This document shows positions 44,905-49,738 of a stretch of 64,000 nucleotides of DNA, piece after piece. The DNA is from an uncultured Dehalococcoidia bacterium (GTDB lineage Bacteria > Chloroflexota > Dehalococcoidia > Lucifugimonadales > Australimonadaceae). Location: positions 1,487,504 through 1,551,503 of the forward strand of contig OY282355.1 in the NCBI GenBank assembly GCA_958295525.1, given 5' to 3'. Made by a program: the position numbers and the translations under genes. The notes beneath the pieces were generated by a model. That model did no database searches. It was not told the DNA's origin and saw only the letters and a list, made by a program, of their open reading frames with translations. The stretch's first letter is position 1; each line of letters begins with the position of its first letter.

Positions 44905-45206
44905 GGGCGGGGTTCCCGCTTTCGCGGGAATGACGTGGCGCGTGGGGTGGTTTGGAGACGAGGCGCGTTGCGCCTCGTCCGTGCGAGGGGCGAGATTCCC
45001 GCCTGCGCGGGAATGACGGGGCCAGTAGGTTCCTGCTTTCGCAGGAATGACGTGGCGTGTGGGGCGCTTTGGAGACGATGCGCTACGCGCCTCGTCCGGC
45101 GCTTGCGCGCCGACTGGATTCCCGCCTACGCGGGAATGACGGAATTGGGGGGCGGATCGCGCCTGCGCGGGAACGACGGGACAGGGGGCAGGGTTCCCGC
45201 CTACGC
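44905..45206. repeat. array of about 6-7 mosaic palindromic repeats between convergent genes
   Basis: GGTTCCCGCTTTCGCGGGAATGACG, GGAGACGAGGCGCGTTGCGCCTCGTCC, GATTCCCGCCTGCGCGGGAATGACG, GGTTCCTGCTTTCGCAGGAATGACG and others. The last, truncated copy overlaps the mgtE stop codon. Confidence 0.85.
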
Positions 45207-46610
45207 CAGCCGGTCTATCGCCAGCGTCGCAAGCCCCAGGAAGAGCAAGAAGCCCATCACGTCCGTCGCGGTCGTTACGACGACCGCCGAAGAGACCGCC
45301 GGATCTTGCCCCAGGCGGCGCAGCGCGAGCGGAACGCCCGCCCCGACGACGCCGGCCACGATCATATTGCCGAACATCGCCAGGCCGAGAATCAGCCCGA
45401 GCAGCGGGCTGCCCTGCCAGAGCGCCGCGCCCAGCGCCACGAGCGCGCCGAGGAACGCGCCGTTGAATACGCCCAACGCCGCCTCGCGGACGAGCAGCCG
45501 CCTCCCGCGCCGCGCGCCGATCTCTCCCAGCGCCATTCCCCGCACTGCGAGCGTCAGCGTTTGCGTGCCTCCGATGCCTCCCTGCCCCGCGACCACCGGA
45601 AGGAAAACCGCGAGCGCGGCCACGCGCGCGATGGTGGACTCGAACATGCTGATCACGCCCGCCGCCGCGAACGTCGTGAGGAGATTCAGCGCCAGCCACG
45701 GGGCGCGACTCCGCACCGACCGGCGAAACGAGGACAGCGGGCGCTCTTTGCCCATTCCCGCCATGCGGAACATATCTTCCGACGCTTCGGCTACTGCTAC
45801 GTCCCGCAGGTCCTCGGCGTCTATCACGCCCACGAGCGCGCCCGATGCGTTGGTGACCGCCAGTTCCGAGAGGTCGTACCGCTCGACGAGGCGGGCGCAC
45901 TCCTCCTGGTCCGCTCCTGTGTCCACCGACGCCTGCAGCGGGCGCATCAAGTCGGCGACGAGGGCGCGGGGCCGGGCGAGGGCGATCCGGCGGATGCTCA
46001 CGTAGCCGACCGGGCGGCCGTCGTCGTCCACCGCGAACACGACGTTCGTGGCGCCGCGCTCCTCCGAAGCCATGAGCCGCAGGAGGTCGAGCGCCATCTC
46101 CGCCGTCGCGTCCGCCCGCGCGCCGGACACGCGGGACATCAGCCCGCCCGCCGTCTCGTCCGGGTACTGCAGCAGCGGAATGACCTCTTCCGCCTCGCTC
46201 ATTCCGGCGAGCGCCGCCTCCGCTTGGTCGGAGGGAAGCGCGTGCAGAATATCCGCCGCCACGTCGGGCGCGAGTTCGTCGAGCGCGCTCGCCACGTCTT
46301 CCGGCGCGAGGAGCCGCGCGACTTCGGCGGCGTCCTCCGGCTCCAACTCCTCCAGCACCGGGGCGACGGCGGCGGCGTCCATCGCCTCCAAGAGCGCCCC
46401 GCGCTCCTCGCCCGTGGCGTCGAGCACGACGTCGGCTTGGTCGGCCGGGTGCAGCGTGAGCAAGGCGCGAACGGCCTCGCCGACGCGCTCCCCTTCCAGG
46501 AACCCGCGCACCGCCTCGGCGGTGTCCTCGACCATTTGGCCGGAGACGACCGCAGGCCCTGCCTCTTCTATTCGTTCGCGCTCGCTTTCGGGCGTCTCCG
46601 CCATCGTCAA
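45201..46610 (-). CDS. mgtE: magnesium transporter MgtE
   Basis: 469 aa. N-terminal acidic MgtE_N, CBS pair region, YPDETAGGLMS, and a C-terminal 5-TM MgtE domain. Confidence 0.9.
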   Translation of the reverse strand: MTMAETPESERERIEEAGPAVVSGQMVEDTAEAVRGFLEGERVGEAVRALLTLHPADQADVVLDATGEERGALLEAMDAAAVAPVLEELEPEDAAEVARLLAPEDVASALDELAPDVAADILHALPSDQAEAALAGMSEAEEVIPLLQYPDETAGGLMSRVSGARADATAEMALDLLRLMASEERGATNVVFAVDDDGRPVGYVSIRRIALARPRALVADLMRPLQASVDTGADQEECARLVERYDLSELAVTNASGALVGVIDAEDLRDVAVAEASEDMFRMAGMGKERPLSSFRRSVRSRAPWLALNLLTTFAAAGVISMFESTIARVAALAVFLPVVAGQGGIGGTQTLTLAVRGMALGEIGARRGRRLLVREAALGVFNGAFLGALVALGAALWQGSPLLGLILGLAMFGNMIVAGVVGAGVPLALRRLGQDPAVSSAVVVTTATDVMGFLLFLGLATLAIDRLA

Positions 46611-46660
46611 CCCTCCTTCAGGCGCTTACATCGTTGCGGACGGCGCCGCATCGCGGGCAA

Positions 46661-49600
46661 TTAGCGCCGCCCGCCGGAGCGCGACTCCGGATCAATCGAG
46701 CGACCAGACTTGCAGGTCGTAGCCCGTGCCGTAGCCGGGGACTTCGTTGCCTTCGTAGAAGCCCGTCCCCACCCAGACGCCGCCCCTCCGCTCAGGTCGA
46801 GCGCGTCGGCCTGCTCGCGGTTCACAGAAAGAACGCCCGCGCCGCCAACCGCCATCAGCCATAACGTGTTCTCGGCGTCCGCGCCCAGGTTCACCTGCGC
46901 CCGGCCATAGTCGCGGTAGACGGAGGAAATGCCGCCGCCGCGCCGGAAATGCTCCCACGAGCCGTCGCTGCCGACCGTGACGGCGTCGAAGGCGTTGCTT
47001 CTGTTCGGGTCGTCTCTGAACGCGATCCCGTAATCCCAACTCCCCACGCCGGAGGAGTAGGGATTGGTGAACGTGGCCACGACGATGAAATCGCCTACGC
47101 CGCCAGTCACCGAATGCGATTTGATGAGGCCGTCGTTCGTATGCGCAAGTTCGCCGGACGCCGTCTCCGCTAAGCGCGGCTCACGGACGGAGAATCCCCG
47201 GAATTGGGTTGTGCTCCCCGGGCTCTCCGCGCCCTGATGATAGCCGGTCATCACGGCGACGTCGCCCGTCGAGGCGCCGCCCTCCAAGTCCAACCCTGTT
47301 ACGAATTCCCCATTGACGAAGAGCCAGCCTATGGAGACGGCCGCGACGAGGCGCACTTCATTGGACGCGCCCGCCTGCGTTCGCAGCGCGCCTGTCCATC
47401 CCCTGTCCATGTCTCTCGATTCCGCGCTGCCGTCTCGTAAGTAATGGAACCATCGCCCGTCGTCGGTCAGCGCCACCACATGGAACCTGTTCTCGCCTGC
47501 GCTGCGAAACAGGAACCCATAGTCCCAACCGGCGGATGAGGGGTTGACGAATGTTGCGGCTGCGCTGAAGTCGGAGACGTGAACGTTCGCCTCGTATTCC
47601 TCTATGTAGCCGTCGTTGTCGTGCGGCATTGCGGCGTCCGCCGGGCCGAAACTGTTGCGCGCGCCGCGCCACGGGGTGGGCGTCGGTTGGACGCGAGGGG
47701 TTGGCGTGGGAGTCGCATTTCCTATCACGCGCCCCGCTTTCAGCACGGGCAGAAGGTCGATGACGGTTTCGGACGCGACGGCGAAGCCGTAGCCCTCGAT
47801 GTTCAGTCCGCCGGCCGTCTCTCGCTGGATAAAGGCGTTGACGCCGACCACCTCGCCGCTCAATGCGAAGAGCGGGCCGCCGCTGTTGCCGGGGTTGATC
47901 TCGGCGTTGGTTTGCACGAGCCAGCGCTTCCCTTCCGTGTCGAGGAACACGCGGGAGACGACGCCGTCCGTGAGCGAGGCGACCCCGGAATCGAATGCGT
48001 CCAGCGGGTAGCCCATTGCGAAAACGCTCGCGCCTTGCGGGGCGCGGGCGCCGCTGAGGCTCGCCGCCATGAAGTCTTGGGAGCAGCAAATGGAGAGGAC
48101 GGCCAGGTCTCGCGCGGCGTCGGAGCCGAGGACGGTCGCGTTATGCCACGATCTGTCCTCGACTTGCACGCGGACGCTGCGCGGGGACTCTTCGATGACG
48201 TGATGGTTCGTTACGACGATCGCCCTGCCTGACGAGTCCGCCTCGACGATGACGCCGGAGCCGGCGCTGCGCCCCGCCGTCACCTGGACGACGCTGGGCC
48301 GGACGCGGTCGGCGACCGCCTCGAGGCTTCCTTGCGCCGGCGCCGGACGCGGCGCAGGCGTCGCGGTTGGCGCAGGCGTGGGCGGCGGAGTAGGCGCGCT
48401 GACCGAAGTTGCGCCGTCCGGCGAAGCGGGCGTTGGCGTCCAAGTCGGGGCGGGCGTCCATGTTGGGTTGGGTGTCGGCGAAGGCGTTGGAGTCCAGGTT
48501 GGGGCGGGCGTCCAAGTGGGGTTCGGCGTCCAGGTGGGAGCGCCGTCGGGCATAGGCGCGCGGGTAGGGCGCGGCGTGGCCGTGGGGTTAGGCGCGGAGA
48601 CGAACTGATGCGTCGGGGTCGGAGCGGCGGCGGCGGGTATGGACGCTGTAGACGGCGTTTCCTGGTTCAAGTAGACCACCACGGCGACGATGGCGATGAC
48701 GGCGGCGAGCGCCCAGAACCATCCCCGTCCGCCTCCGCCCGAAGAGCCGCCGCCCGCTCCCGTTTGCCCCCCGGCGCCGGCGCCGCCGGCGCCGCTCGCG
48801 CCCCTGCCTGCAGGCTCGCGCTCCCGCTCCCCGTGTTGCGCTTGCCCTTGCCGCGGCTGCTCGGATGCGACCGCGCCCCGCCCATTGCAAAGGGAGCACT
48901 CCGCGCCTGCGCGAATGCTCTCGGACCCGACGACCAAGGCGCGCGCTTCGGACACTTCCTGCATTCGCAAGGTGGCGTCCGGAGCCTTGTTCCGGTCGGG
49001 GTGATATTGCATCGCCTTCCGGCGGAACGCCTGCGTTATCTCCTCAGAAGAAGCGCCTAACGGAATGTCCAACACCCGGTGATATTTTGTGGCGACTTTG
49101 CCTGATCCTCCGCACGACGGGCATTGCGCCGCCGCCGCTCGCCCCGCGTATCCGCTCCAGGGCGGGCTCGCCTCTTGGCGGCGGCGGCTCTCTTCCGCCT
49201 CCTTACGCGCTTTCTCCTCGCGGCGGCTCTGCTCGTCCGCCGCCCTGCGGGCTTCCTCTGAGCGGCGGCGGGCTTCCTCCGCGGCGCGGCGATTCTCCTC
49301 GCGGCGGCGCGTCTCTTTCTCTTCTTGGCGCGCCCGCTCGCGCCGCCGTTCGAAGACGTCCTCGTTTTCGTAGCCGGCGCCGGAGCACTGCGGGCAGCGC
49401 CCCCATTCGCCCGTATGCGAGGCGGTCTGTCCATGCCCGTCGCAGACGGAGCAGACGCCGCCGTCCACGAATCGGACGTCGTGCCCCTGTCGGCGGTGGC
49501 GCATCAGATGCTCGCCGCAGAGCGGGCCGAGCCCGGTGGCGAACGGCGCCTCCGAGCAGTAGCCGACGCCGCGCTCCTGGCATCCGGCCTCGCCGCAATG

Positions 49601-49738
49601 CGCTTGCTGCGGGTTGTGGACGTGCATCCGCCAGAGCGTCGTCGGGAAGGACCTGCCGCACCGGGGGCAGGTCCTGATAAAGCCGGCGCCGGACGCGCCG
49701 CCTCCGTCGCGGTGATAGTCGCGGTCATCGACGCCCAT
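46661..49738 (-). CDS. multidomain membrane protein: zinc ribbons, charged coiled coil, J domain, TM helix, Pro/Thr linker, trypsin-like (S1C) protease, two tandem lectin-like repeats
   Basis: J domain with YHPDRN. TM WFWALAAVIAIVAVVVYL. Linker PTWTPNPTWTPAPTWTP. Protease motifs VVTNHHVIE and GNSGGPLF. Two repeats of about 190 aa sharing F.NP....WDYG..FR. The true 3' end is probably 46692 after correcting a 1-nt indel (see findings). Confidence 0.7.
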   Translation of the reverse strand: MGVDDRDYHRDGGGASGAGFIRTCPRCGRSFPTTLWRMHVHNPQQAHCGEAGCQERGVGYCSEAPFATGLGPLCGEHLMRHRRQGHDVRFVDGGVCSVCDGHGQTASHTGEWGRCPQCSGAGYENEDVFERRRERARQEEKETRRREENRRAAEEARRRSEEARRAADEQSRREEKARKEAEESRRRQEASPPWSGYAGRAAAAQCPSCGGSGKVATKYHRVLDIPLGASSEEITQAFRRKAMQYHPDRNKAPDATLRMQEVSEARALVVGSESIRAGAECSLCNGRGAVASEQPRQGQAQHGEREREPAGRGASGAGGAGAGGQTGAGGGSSGGGGRGWFWALAAVIAIVAVVVYLNQETPSTASIPAAAAPTPTHQFVSAPNPTATPRPTRAPMPDGAPTWTPNPTWTPAPTWTPTPSPTPNPTWTPAPTWTPTPASPDGATSVSAPTPPPTPAPTATPAPRPAPAQGSLEAVADRVRPSVVQVTAGRSAGSGVIVEADSSGRAIVVTNHHVIEESPRSVRVQVEDRSWHNATVLGSDAARDLAVLSICCSQDFMAASLSGARAPQGASVFAMGYPLDAFDSGVASLTDGVVSRVFLDTEGKRWLVQTNAEINPGNSGGPLFALSGEVVGVNAFIQRETAGGLNIEGYGFAVASETVIDLLPVLKAGRVIGNATPTPTPRVQPTPTPWRGARNSFGPADAAMPHDNDGYIEEYEANVHVSDFSAAATFVNPSSAGWDYGFLFRSAGENRFHVVALTDDGRWFHYLRDGSAESRDMDRGWTGALRTQAGASNEVRLVAAVSIGWLFVNGEFVTGLDLEGGASTGDVAVMTGYHQGAESPGSTTQFRGFSVREPRLAETASGELAHTNDGLIKSHSVTGGVGDFIVVATFTNPYSSGVGSWDYGIAFRDDPNRSNAFDAVTVGSDGSWEHFRRGGGISSVYRDYGRAQVNLGADAENTLWLMAVGGAGVLSVNREQADALDLSGGAASGWGRASTKATKSPATARATTCKSGRSIDPESRSGGRR

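Follow-up and report, generated by a model that had tools for sequence, protein, structure and literature searches.

How does a single polypeptide come to carry a J domain on one side of a membrane and an HtrA-like protease on the other, and do the two halves work together? The question is raised by one gene in the window, a stretch of 64,000 nucleotides from an uncultured Dehalococcoidia bacterium (phylum Chloroflexota). A preliminary description had placed a single ORF at 46661-49738; exactly these coordinates were recovered, on the minus strand, with a product (P0001) of 1025 aa as assembled. Its N-terminal start, MG(V/I)(D/E)DRDY, is common to the ORF and the aligned orthologues P0002, P0004, and P0005. 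The domain order first proposed is confirmed by Pfam matches, motif positions, and AlphaFold models; in the terms used here it runs ZnN domain, ER/K helix, J cassette, Gly-rich segment, transmembrane (TM) helix, Pro/Thr linker, protease, and two β-sandwiches. The features, from the N-terminus onward, are:

46661..49738, minus strand: the ORF as assembled, 1025 aa
49364..49687, minus strand: ZnN domain, residues 18-125; predicted cytoplasmic, lineage-restricted
49169..49363, minus strand: ER/K single α-helix, residues 126-190; about 9.8 nm if fully helical
48869..49132, minus strand: J cassette, residues 203-290; CxxCxGxG (C206, C209), J domain 216-277, CxxCxGxG (C281, C284)
48725..48853, minus strand: Gly-rich juxtamembrane segment, residues 296-338; 42% Gly
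48668..48724, minus strand: single TM helix, residues 339-357 (GWFWALAAVIAIVAVVVYL); putative signal anchor
48329..48667, minus strand: Pro/Thr/Ala linker, residues 358-470; five PTWTP units, residues 401-435
47699..48328, minus strand: HtrA-like (S1C) serine protease domain, residues 471-680
47177..47647, minus strand: LamG/ConA-like repeat 1, residues 698-854
46787..47158, minus strand: LamG/ConA-like repeat 2, in-frame part, residues 861-984, ending ...LDLSG
46692..46786, minus strand: true C-terminus of repeat 2 (GGVWVGTGFYEGNEVPGYGTGYDLQVWSLD, then TGA 46692-46694), in the adjacent frame
45201..46610, minus strand: mgtE, the downstream gene, for context only; Pfam MgtE, MgtE_N, CBS

Residues 339-357 are the only 19-residue window with a high Kyte-Doolittle score (2.4), in keeping with the one TM helix noticed at the outset. 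Because this single segment follows both the Cys/His zinc motifs and the J domain, we infer a type II single-pass topology, N-in/C-out. The genome also encodes a protease-plus-repeats paralogue which, in place of the head, has a signal-peptide-like hydrophobic N-terminus and then a Cys, which argues that the protease-plus-repeats cassette is exported. The preliminary description did not recognize the protein as a member of a described family. Likewise, neither the reviews on bacterial J proteins nor the other literature searched yielded a description of a J-domain head joined to an HtrA-type protease.

The N-terminal head and its J domain

Twelve ligand candidates are invariant in the ZnN domain (alignment A4: C24, C27, H39, H41 / C48, C53, C74, H77 / C96, C99, C115, C118) and would form three zinc sites, the last of which is a pair of DnaJ-type CxxCxGxG motifs. 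A motif scan of the ORF product finds such motifs at residues 96, 115, 206, and 281; the Cys motifs first read as several zinc ribbons are real, but four of the five CxxC motifs are of this DnaJ type. ZnN is modeled by AlphaFold at pLDDT ~95 over residues 20-125. No Pfam family scores above its cut-off on this domain (the weak matches are DnaJ_CXXCXGXG and Anti-TRAP only); the A4 profile matches nothing significantly among PDB sequences, with weak last-site matches to the Q antiterminator, UvrA, and the DnaJ Cys-rich domain 1exk; and no structural relative is visible, the best 50 PDB matches of the head in Foldseek all being J domains. Some DnaJ-like zinc-finger proteins have no J domain, among them Anti-TRAP and, in plants, ORANGE/DnaJE (PMC12063368). 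ZnN shares with them the use of CxxCxGxG knuckles outside canonical DnaJ, and ORANGE is likewise membrane-bound; the Pfam matches stay below their cut-offs, and ZnN has two further invariant Cys/His sites upstream, which match nothing. A putative three-zinc cytoplasmic domain of a new type, ZnN is restricted to a few lineages of Chloroflexota.

The charged Arg/Glu stretch that follows had looked like a coiled coil. AlphaFold instead models residues 126-190 as one continuous helix (pLDDT 93-99), and only 2 of the 65 residues are hydrophobic, against 21 acidic and 24 basic; together, these features fit an ER/K single α-helix better than a coiled coil. Its length varies among homologues, with the motif-to-motif distance ranging from 42 to 142 aa, and tandem DNA repeats occupy 49162-49291 in this region.

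The J domain, at first called canonical, is confirmed: Pfam DnaJ (PF00226) covers residues 219-267 at 45.8 bits (cut-off 27.8, E = 6.5e-12), with an intact HPD motif at residues 246-248, and the J cassette is modeled at pLDDT 95-97 over residues 205-290. Foldseek matches of the head include the J domains of T. thermophilus DnaJ, Ydj1, and chain B of the DnaK-bound structure 5nro. What sets the cassette apart is its frame: in the homologue table, the first flanking motif lies 40 aa before HPD and the second 35 aa after, distances that are constant in the J-cassette homologues which have both motifs. C206, C209, C281, and C284 would together form a fourth predicted zinc site, a clamp tying both ends of the J domain; helix IV of the J domain is short and continues into the second zinc knuckle, a point that counts against a fully working J domain and DnaK recruitment. 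Beyond the cassette, the Gly-rich segment is predicted to be disordered (pLDDT <50 over residues 294-337).

Which Hsp70 could such a J domain serve? The genome has one Hsp70 gene (PF00012, 848 bits) and four J proteins, two of which bear the ZnN-type head. The ORF product has the features of a class C J-domain protein: a J domain that exceeds the Pfam gathering score and contains HPD, the helical J fold, and an Hsp70 partner in the cell. Class C membrane J proteins include DjlA, with an N-terminal TM and a C-terminal J domain, and the tail-anchored DjlB and DjlC (PMC8215388). The ORF product shares with these a J domain at the cytoplasmic face of the membrane and a presumed role in localizing Hsp70; unlike them, it has the J domain before the TM helix, between CxxCxGxG knuckles, and a 670-residue ectodomain after it, and it has no dedicated Hsp70, the genome having just one. 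There is also a likeness to class A DnaJ: the J domain is 60% identical to that of the cell's own DnaJ, each protein has four CxxCxGxG motifs, and a Gly-rich segment follows the J domain in both. In the ORF product, however, the motifs are permuted, two preceding the ER/K helix and two flanking the J domain, and there is no C-terminal client-binding or dimerization domain; the class A family TIGR02349 gives 47 bits against a cut-off of 377, and the class A order of J, G/F, and contiguous four-motif finger, the last set within C-terminal β-sandwich domains, is absent.

The ectodomain and the 3' end of the gene

The linker, whose PTWTP repeats had been noted at the outset, is encoded in part by tandem DNA repeats (48435-48542) and leads into a protease for which Pfam Trypsin_2 scores 87.6 bits (cut-off 27.6) over residues 493-633. 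Loss of the catalytic triad, a flaw that the preliminary description had considered, was not found: H513, D544, and S619 are intact and align with the DegS motifs TNKHV, TDLAVL, and GNSGG. The closest PDB relatives are DegS, DegP, DegQ, and MucD by sequence (E ~1e-21) and DegS, DegP, PepD, and MucD by fold (Foldseek, E ~1e-14). The earlier reading of an HtrA/S1C-like core without PDZ domains stands: no PDZ domain is matched by Pfam at E up to 1, and the scores fall far short of the NCBIfam cut-offs for Do/DegS/HtrA equivalogs (the best, TIGR02037, gives 126 bits against 416, on the protease domain only). In alignment A1, a vicinal Cys pair (C551-C552) shows conservation of at least 90%.

The two C-terminal repeats, described as lectin-like, are about 39% identical to each other, all-β, and LamG/ConA-like by fold. 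The AlphaFold model in which they are seen is confident (pLDDT 85, with 90-97 in repeat 1) and gives each repeat about 12-13 strands, at pLDDT above 90, in a jelly-roll β-sandwich. For the ectodomain, the PDB matches listed by Foldseek are HtrA proteases only, and BFVD was used for the fold search; it returned LamG and ConA-like lectin/glucanase proteins (E 6e-13 to 1e-8) and, with galectin annotations included, matches at E 6e-13 to 3e-8, all of which would belong to the repeats, although the search does not give the aligned regions. Curated sequence families stay below their cut-offs: Laminin_G_3 gives 16 bits against 27.6 in Pfam (E = 0.013), 3keto-disac_hyd gives 25.2 bits against 26.8 on the homologue P0049, and the repeat profile (A3) has no significant match among PDB sequences.

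Membrane-anchored HtrA-family (MEROPS S1C) proteases are both the best sequence matches and the best fold matches of the protease, and E. coli DegS, M. tuberculosis PepD (Rv0983) and HtrA1, and B. subtilis HtrA/HtrB likewise combine an N-in single TM with a chymotrypsin-fold protease, the triad, and GNSGG. The ORF product departs from them on both sides of the membrane: outside, by a long Pro/Thr stalk and two LamG/ConA-like sandwiches instead of PDZ; inside, by a large structured cytoplasmic head with predicted zinc sites and a J domain.

Is this copy of the gene intact? The preliminary description had allowed for a chimeric assembly or an ORF broken by stops. A chimera is ruled out by orthologues of full length found in at least four further assemblies, where the contigs measure 3.16 Mb, 694 kb, 37 kb, and 13 kb; the frame, on the other hand, is broken near the 3' end, which affects the last ~30 residues only. 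Orthologue C-termini all read ...LDLSGxxxxGGVWVGTGFYEGNEVPGY...VWSLD, and their comparison with a three-frame translation puts the last 41 codons of the ORF out of frame; a DNA alignment with L081 places a gap of 10 nt at about 46788/46789 when the gene is set against that of P0002. Read in its own frame, the displaced C-terminal segment is unbroken and differs from the orthologue mostly by synonymous changes, so the shift is either very recent or an assembly error. If real, it would cost repeat 2 its last strands. Programmed frameshifting was considered and rejected: the orthologues are in frame, the change is a 10-nt gap, and no canonical slippery heptamer was found by eye. A decaying or mis-assembled copy, with a real frameshift that makes the gene a recent pseudogene or damages its second lectin-like domain, is a possibility that we take seriously while holding it to be the less probable one. 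It is favored by the gap itself, which shifts the frame 41 codons ahead of the annotated stop, and by P0130 (apparently the same species in another assembly, 97% identical over 158 aa), which loses its frame in the repeat-rich ER/K region; yet the remainder of the 3-kb ORF is open, and the displaced segment has stayed intact with mostly synonymous changes.

A portable head and its possible functions

The preliminary description went on to propose a single coupled device made up of J domain and protease. The distribution of the head tells against this: within the same genome it is joined to an HExxH protein, in relatives it is found on CAP, FN3, other, and near-empty ectodomains, and J-bearing heads form one clade regardless of ectodomain. 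The J cassette is itself optional, missing from many ZnN proteins, including those of representative genomes of three other species of the genus, and is thus dispensable for the ectodomain. We read the head as a portable anchor module specific to this lineage. A second Chloroflexota family (P0113-like) combines a plain J domain, an ER/K helix, and a TM with S1C-plus-repeats or CAP ectodomains. That J-containing anchors turn up in two families, each time joined to the same set of ectodomains, could mean functional coupling, which would run counter to independence of the two halves. A search of genome contigs with the head was dominated by ordinary DnaJ J domains and yielded no relatives.

The neighborhood offers little more. 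As first noted, mgtE adjoins the ORF on the same strand, and a rhodanese gene is the other neighbor, but four relatives have other, unrelated genes at the locus, and a functional link to mgtE was rejected on that ground. A promoter/terminator scan gave nothing above the shuffled background. Membership in an anti-phage defense system was also considered and rejected: PADLOC gave no full-length match, the RT-Protease_XI, LmuA, Avs1b, and PDC-M35A matches cover the trypsin-like domain only, and a weak PD-T4-6 match (E = 1.5e-7) lies on the low-complexity Gly-rich/TM/Pro-Thr region (residues 258-470).

The best reading, in our view a fairly probable one, is a protease tethered at the cell surface by a membrane anchor that recruits DnaK. 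Outside, a Pro/Thr stalk of about 110 residues would carry a PDZ-less HtrA-family protease, predicted to be catalytically competent from its intact triad, with two LamG/ConA-like domains that replace PDZ and are likely substrate-binding or envelope/glycan-binding modules. Inside, ZnN would be followed by a stiff ER/K helix of variable length and, in this clade, by the J domain putatively clamped between two zinc knuckles, which would class the protein as a membrane-tethered J-domain protein of class C. The HPD loop should trigger ATP hydrolysis near the membrane by the one DnaK that the genome encodes, and this DnaK could be loaded onto cargo held by ZnN or onto the Gly-rich juxtamembrane segment of the protein itself. 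The role given here to the inside half is conjectural, as would be any effect of inside events on the outside protease; we lean toward two halves that act largely independently.

A rival reading is that the J domain aids biogenesis in cis: DnaK would hold the long head, together with the signal anchor that emerges late (residue 339), in a soluble and insertion-competent state until the anchor meets the targeting and insertion machinery, and the head would have no later role. In E. coli, DnaK/DnaJ help to target tail-anchored proteins, the J protein DjlC among them, and keep them from aggregating (PMC6794478); many short ZnN proteins are tail-anchored, and throughout the ZnN-head family 340 to 640 residues precede the anchor. 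We nonetheless think this unlikely, given that relatives whose head is the same and whose anchor comes just as late lack the J cassette, that the TM helix is internal here and ordinary co-translational targeting should suffice, and that conservation of ZnN would go unexplained.

Another rival, in line with the coupled device first proposed, is a trans-membrane switch. HtrA proteases are regulated through their oligomeric state; DnaK loaded in cis onto the head or the Gly-rich segment could control self-association of the heads, and with it HtrA-like trimerization and activation, coupling cytoplasmic folding stress to surface proteolysis or the reverse. In every S1C-type orthologue, 58-60 residues separate the J domain from the TM helix, J-containing anchors are found on S1C-plus-repeats ectodomains in two separate families, and the ERdj4-BiP-IRE1 mechanism is a precedent (PMC5733394). 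Such a switch is quite unlikely in a family whose head is also found on CAP, HExxH, FN3, and near-empty ectodomains and whose J cassette is optional; moreover, a flexible Gly-rich segment and a ~110-residue Pro/Thr stalk are poor transmitters of conformational change. A version based on chaperone titration is very doubtful: DnaK on the Gly-rich segment or ZnN would keep heads apart until unfolded proteins titrate it away, upon which the heads would associate into active HtrA-like oligomers. If true, surface proteolysis would report cytoplasmic folding stress, by an ERdj4-BiP-IRE1-like logic contained in one polypeptide and facing outward.

Many anti-sigma factors have a zinc-binding cytoplasmic N-terminus, a single TM, and a variable ectodomain. 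An anti-sigma-like device, in effect a fused RseA-DegS whose zinc head sequesters a regulator until its own DegS-like ectodomain cleaves the stalk, would match this layout and a protease closest to DegS by sequence and fold, yet it is highly improbable and was rejected: there is no adjacent co-oriented ECF sigma or other regulator gene here, no such gene in four other neighborhoods, and no match of ZnN to the Pfam anti-sigma zinc domains.

What does the tethered protease on a DnaK-recruiting anchor mean for its family? If the halves are independent, the result is a useful annotation and no new mechanism. If the head works as predicted, this would be a bacterial J protein that brings DnaK to the cytoplasmic side of the membrane while sharing one polypeptide with an extracytoplasmic HtrA-type protease. 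Three things are ready for the bench: the predicted three-zinc ZnN domain, a J domain whose ends are predicted to be tied by a pair of DnaJ-type zinc knuckles, and the widespread PDZ-less HtrA subfamily with two LamG-like domains. Reuse of one head on a serine protease, an HExxH protein, and CAP, with or without the J cassette, is a clean natural experiment in how domains are shuffled among the surface proteins of a poorly studied phylum.

Domain content and orientation of the window protein

The window gene (46661-49738, minus strand) has a reading frame open over 1025 codons; the numerous overlapping ORFs in other frames are a usual side effect of ~70% G+C. The Cys/His motifs, the HPD (residues 246-248) and the five PTWTP units listed in the preliminary description are confirmed in position, and three domains are delimited in the product:

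Residues 18-125, minus strand: ZnN, a Cys/His domain, from the alignment and the head model
Residues 219-267, minus strand: DnaJ domain (Pfam, 45.8 bits against a cut-off of 27.8)
Residues 493-633, minus strand: Trypsin_2 (Pfam, 87.6 bits against a cut-off of 27.6)

The NCBIfam Do/DegS/HtrA and DnaJ models match the protease and J domains, respectively, in part only and below threshold. By hydropathy, the protein has a single hydrophobic stretch, residues 339-357. An N-in/C-out orientation is strongly indicated, because this sole TM helix is not accompanied by an N-terminal signal peptide; because 14 cysteines in zinc-type motifs and the J domain, which needs cytoplasmic DnaK, lie N-terminal of it; and because an ectodomain-only paralogue elsewhere in the genome (C1) opens with a signal-peptide-like N-terminus in place of the cytoplasmic N-terminal half (the head):

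C1:1675964-1677883, minus strand: ectodomain-only paralogue; its hydrophobic N-terminus resembles a signal peptide and ends in Cys, and an HtrA-like (S1C) protease domain and two LamG-like repeats follow

The ectodomain was modelled with AlphaFold (residues 455-1025, 101 homologues, mean pLDDT 85). Its protease resembles DegS, DegP, MucD and M. tuberculosis PepD in fold (E ~1e-14) and in sequence (E ~1e-21). The catalytic triad H513/D544/S619 is intact, since all three motifs align with their DegS counterparts: TNHH(513)V with TNKHV, RD(544)LAVL with TDLAVL and GNS(619)GG with GNSGG. A Pfam search of the window protein finds no PDZ domain, so the HtrA/S1C-like, PDZ-less protease first proposed stands. 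Seven residues past the catalytic Asp lies a vicinal pair, C551-C552 (window 48083-48088), the sole cysteines of the true ectodomain, kept in at least 90% of the 101 homologues; the pair could be a vicinal disulfide that serves as a redox switch of the extracytoplasmic protease.

C-terminal to the protease, the model has two all-beta domains of ~160 residues each, which share ~39% identity. Sequence searches give a weak Pfam match to Laminin_G_3 (E = 0.013), a 3keto-disac_hyd hit in homologue P0049 that scores slightly below the cut-off, and no match of the repeat profile to PDB sequences. A fold search of the ectodomain model against viral structures retrieves trypsin-like peptidases and many proteins annotated as LamG, ConA-like lectin/glucanase or galectin, the latter group with E from 6e-13 to 3e-8. 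The repeats are thus probably LamG/ConA-like jelly rolls, an assignment that draws on the domain content of the fold matches, whose aligned residues are not displayed; it bears out the earlier impression of beta-sandwich or lectin-like repeats. G+C falls to 0.64-0.66 over the LamG-like repeat region (window 46500-48000), against 0.70-0.72 on either flank.

The 3' end of the window gene is displaced. All four full-length orthologues end in ...LDLSGxxxxGGVW(V/A)GTGFY.GNE.PG......VWSLD, and the terminal VWSLD is in frame in the ectodomain-only paralogue. Past LDLSG the window protein continues with the unrelated GAASGWGRAST..., and the neighbouring frame encodes the ending to be expected from the orthologues, GGVWVGTGFYEGNEVPGYGTGYDLQVWSLD, with its TGA stop at 46692-46694. 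DNA alignment with the gene of orthologue P0002 places one 10-nt gap at about 46788/46789; 3' of it, the differences between the two genes are mostly synonymous in the displaced frame, which marks the shift as an error of assembly or a lesion of very recent origin. In another assembly, fragment P0130 (97% identity across 158 residues) also loses frame, within the repeat-rich ER/K region, which suggests that the locus is error-prone. Immediately past the true TGA lies a perfect 6-bp inverted repeat on the minus strand (ccggag tcgcg ctccgg, 46674-46690), within the roughly 80-nt gap ahead of the mgtE start; it lacks a T-run and was not called by a terminator scan.

The predicted cytoplasmic head

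A head model of residues 1-345, built from 58 sequences, has pLDDT >95 at residues 20-190 and 205-290 and <50 at 294-337. Twelve ZnN residues are invariant in 25 diverse members (C24, C27, H39, H41, C48, C53, C74, H77, C96, C99, C115 and C118), as are a few Gly, Val and Tyr; as candidate ligands, these twelve are predicted to suffice for three tetrahedral zinc sites. The final four form two CxxCxGxG motifs, and this last site weakly matches the DnaJ Cys-rich domain (1exk), the phage Q antiterminator and UvrA zinc fingers in the PDB, and DnaJ_CXXCXGXG and Anti-TRAP in Pfam. Sites one and two have no match in Pfam or in a PDB-sequence profile search.

Residues 126-190, which had been described as a coiled-coil-like Arg/Glu stretch, are instead a modelled ER/K single alpha-helix of ~9.8 nm, because only two of the 65 residues are hydrophobic (21 are acidic and 24 basic), a heptad pattern is absent and the model draws one helix. 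The length of this helix is not conserved: the motifs on either side of it lie 42 to 142 residues apart across homologues. Tandem DNA repeats underlie the ER/K helix (window 49162-49291, periods 42/21) and the PTWTP stalk (48435-48542, periods 36/18). Both segments differ in length between orthologues; these repeat-bearing segments therefore expand and contract.

The J domain is nested between two DnaJ-type knuckles, an arrangement termed here the J cassette: CxxCxGxG, 40 residues to the HPD and 35 residues onward to a second CxxCxGxG, a spacing identical in every tabulated J-cassette homologue with both flanking motifs. Together the two knuckles may make up a fourth zinc site, which would clamp the two termini of the J domain together. 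All Foldseek matches listed for the head model are J domains, including the DnaK-bound J domain of 5nro. Hsp70 is encoded once in the window's genome and J domains four times: by dnaJ, by another gene for a soluble J protein, by the window gene and by its paralogue. The window J domain shares 60% identity with that of the cell's DnaJ, 43% with that of the second soluble J protein and 88% with that of the paralogue, and ~50 nt of its DNA are nearly identical to dnaJ. In one relative, P0010 (1248 aa), a single head precedes a CAP ectodomain and carries two complete cassettes, both with the layout CxxCxGxG, J, CxxCxGxG.

Distribution and modular reuse

Could the architecture be an assembly artefact, the concern raised at the outset? 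Full-length orthologues (J plus Trypsin, 61-76% identity) lie on four other contigs, of 3.16 Mb, 694 kb, 37 kb and 13 kb, which rules out a chimera. The headless protease-plus-two-repeats cassette is common (554 matches in a word-limited search) in Chloroflexota MAGs, where its only names are "S1C family serine protease" and "trypsin-like peptidase domain-containing protein", and patchy: in a phylum-wide sample of 401 genomes, 19 have it. The ZnN head is rare: 57 cluster representatives (E <1e-10) among 1.8 billion proteins, and, in a class-wide sample of 401 genomes, 8 with the head. These eight are the representatives of all four species in the window's genus, another genome from its family, and three genomes of one further genus with weak hits.

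In ZnN proteins the order ZnN, charged helix, TM is invariable; the part after the TM differs and may be S1C with two repeats, S1C alone, HExxH, CAP, FN3 with an unknown domain, or nearly empty (tail-anchored). The J-bearing paralogue in the window's genome is one such case:

C1:1724787-1727996, minus strand: second ZnN gene, with the same head of ZnN, ER/K helix, J cassette and TM (74-86% identical)

In its product, Pro/Thr linkers and a helical domain separate this head from a putative metallopeptidase, a C-terminal HEVLH-motif domain that has no Pfam match. In three further species of the genus, the ZnN genes of the representative genomes lack the J cassette; P0148 has a J domain of ordinary type, placed elsewhere in the protein. 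In the ZnN tree, J-bearing heads form one clade (support 97/86) spanning S1C, CAP and other ectodomains, and J-less ZnN-S1C proteins are spread over three other clades. The tree and the varied ectodomains show that the head is a portable module and the J cassette an add-on inside it. Six tail-anchored short ZnN proteins (P0155, P0158-P0161, P0165; 220-360 aa), with a conserved short segment after the TM (PLLPDAAAEQV.DLQ..V...F), look like a minimal form of the family, almost without ectodomain. The metagenome protein P0056 (696 aa, contig of 215 kb) switches, part-way through helix III of its J domain, from the ZnN-J head to an in-frame phage terminase large subunit (phrog_2, E = 3.7e-24); either a prophage inserted in the gene or the contig is chimeric.

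P0113 (1514 aa) is the type member of a second family, whose NCBI name is "DnaJ domain-containing protein [Chloroflexi bacterium]". Proteins of this family open with a plain J domain, go on to an ER/K-type helix, a TM helix and RCC1 repeats, and end in a CAP domain, ankyrin repeats or the S1C-plus-two-repeats cassette already met in the window protein. The P0113 gene is surrounded by defence-type and toxin-antitoxin genes (AAA_15/21 ATPases, ThsB_TIR, BrnT/BrnA). At its locus and that of P0022, a small stand-alone Trypsin_2 gene (339 and 360 aa, respectively) adjoins the large anchored protease.

The window gene has a rhodanese gene upstream on the same strand and mgtE directly downstream, as first described; the mgtE adjacency is not kept in orthologues, which neighbour acyl-CoA dehydrogenase and gyrA, or argininosuccinate lyase and an NMT1-like gene. 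Distant ZnN genes have yet other neighbours, and across all these neighbourhoods there is neither a conserved partner gene nor an adjacent sigma factor gene.

Two halves of one membrane protein

Neither a J-TM-protease protein nor ZnN is described in the literature searched, which included bacterial Hsp70-system reviews and a census of ~280,000 J proteins, with the census of bacterial J-protein architectures of Barriot et al. (2020) outside the search; the initial view that this is not a described family agrees with that. Singly, the HtrA-like protease, class C J protein and LamG-like domain are known in kind; ZnN, the zinc-nested J cassette and their combination with these known parts are new variants.

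Are the two sides coupled across the membrane, as the preliminary description supposed? The head is borne by unrelated ectodomains too and its J cassette is optional; because of this we lean toward a surface protease joined to a DnaK-recruiting membrane anchor, with the halves probably, on balance, largely independent. Real coupling is the less likely reading, supported by the recurrence of J-bearing anchors on the same ectodomains in two families. By analogy with ERdj4-BiP-IRE1 (PMC5733394), it might take the form of a DnaK-titration switch, which that recurrence would suit, and which fits less well with an optional cassette and interchangeable ectodomains. Alternatively, the J domain might act in cis in insertion, by analogy with the insertion role of E. 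coli DnaK for tail-anchored proteins (PMC6794478). On the outer side, the ~110-residue Pro/Thr stretch would hold the protease away from the surface, where it may cut envelope or external proteins picked by the LamG-like domains; on the inner side, the J domain would activate DnaK beside the membrane. The protein would thereby count as a class C J protein tethered to the membrane, with either a ZnN-bound protein or the head itself as client.
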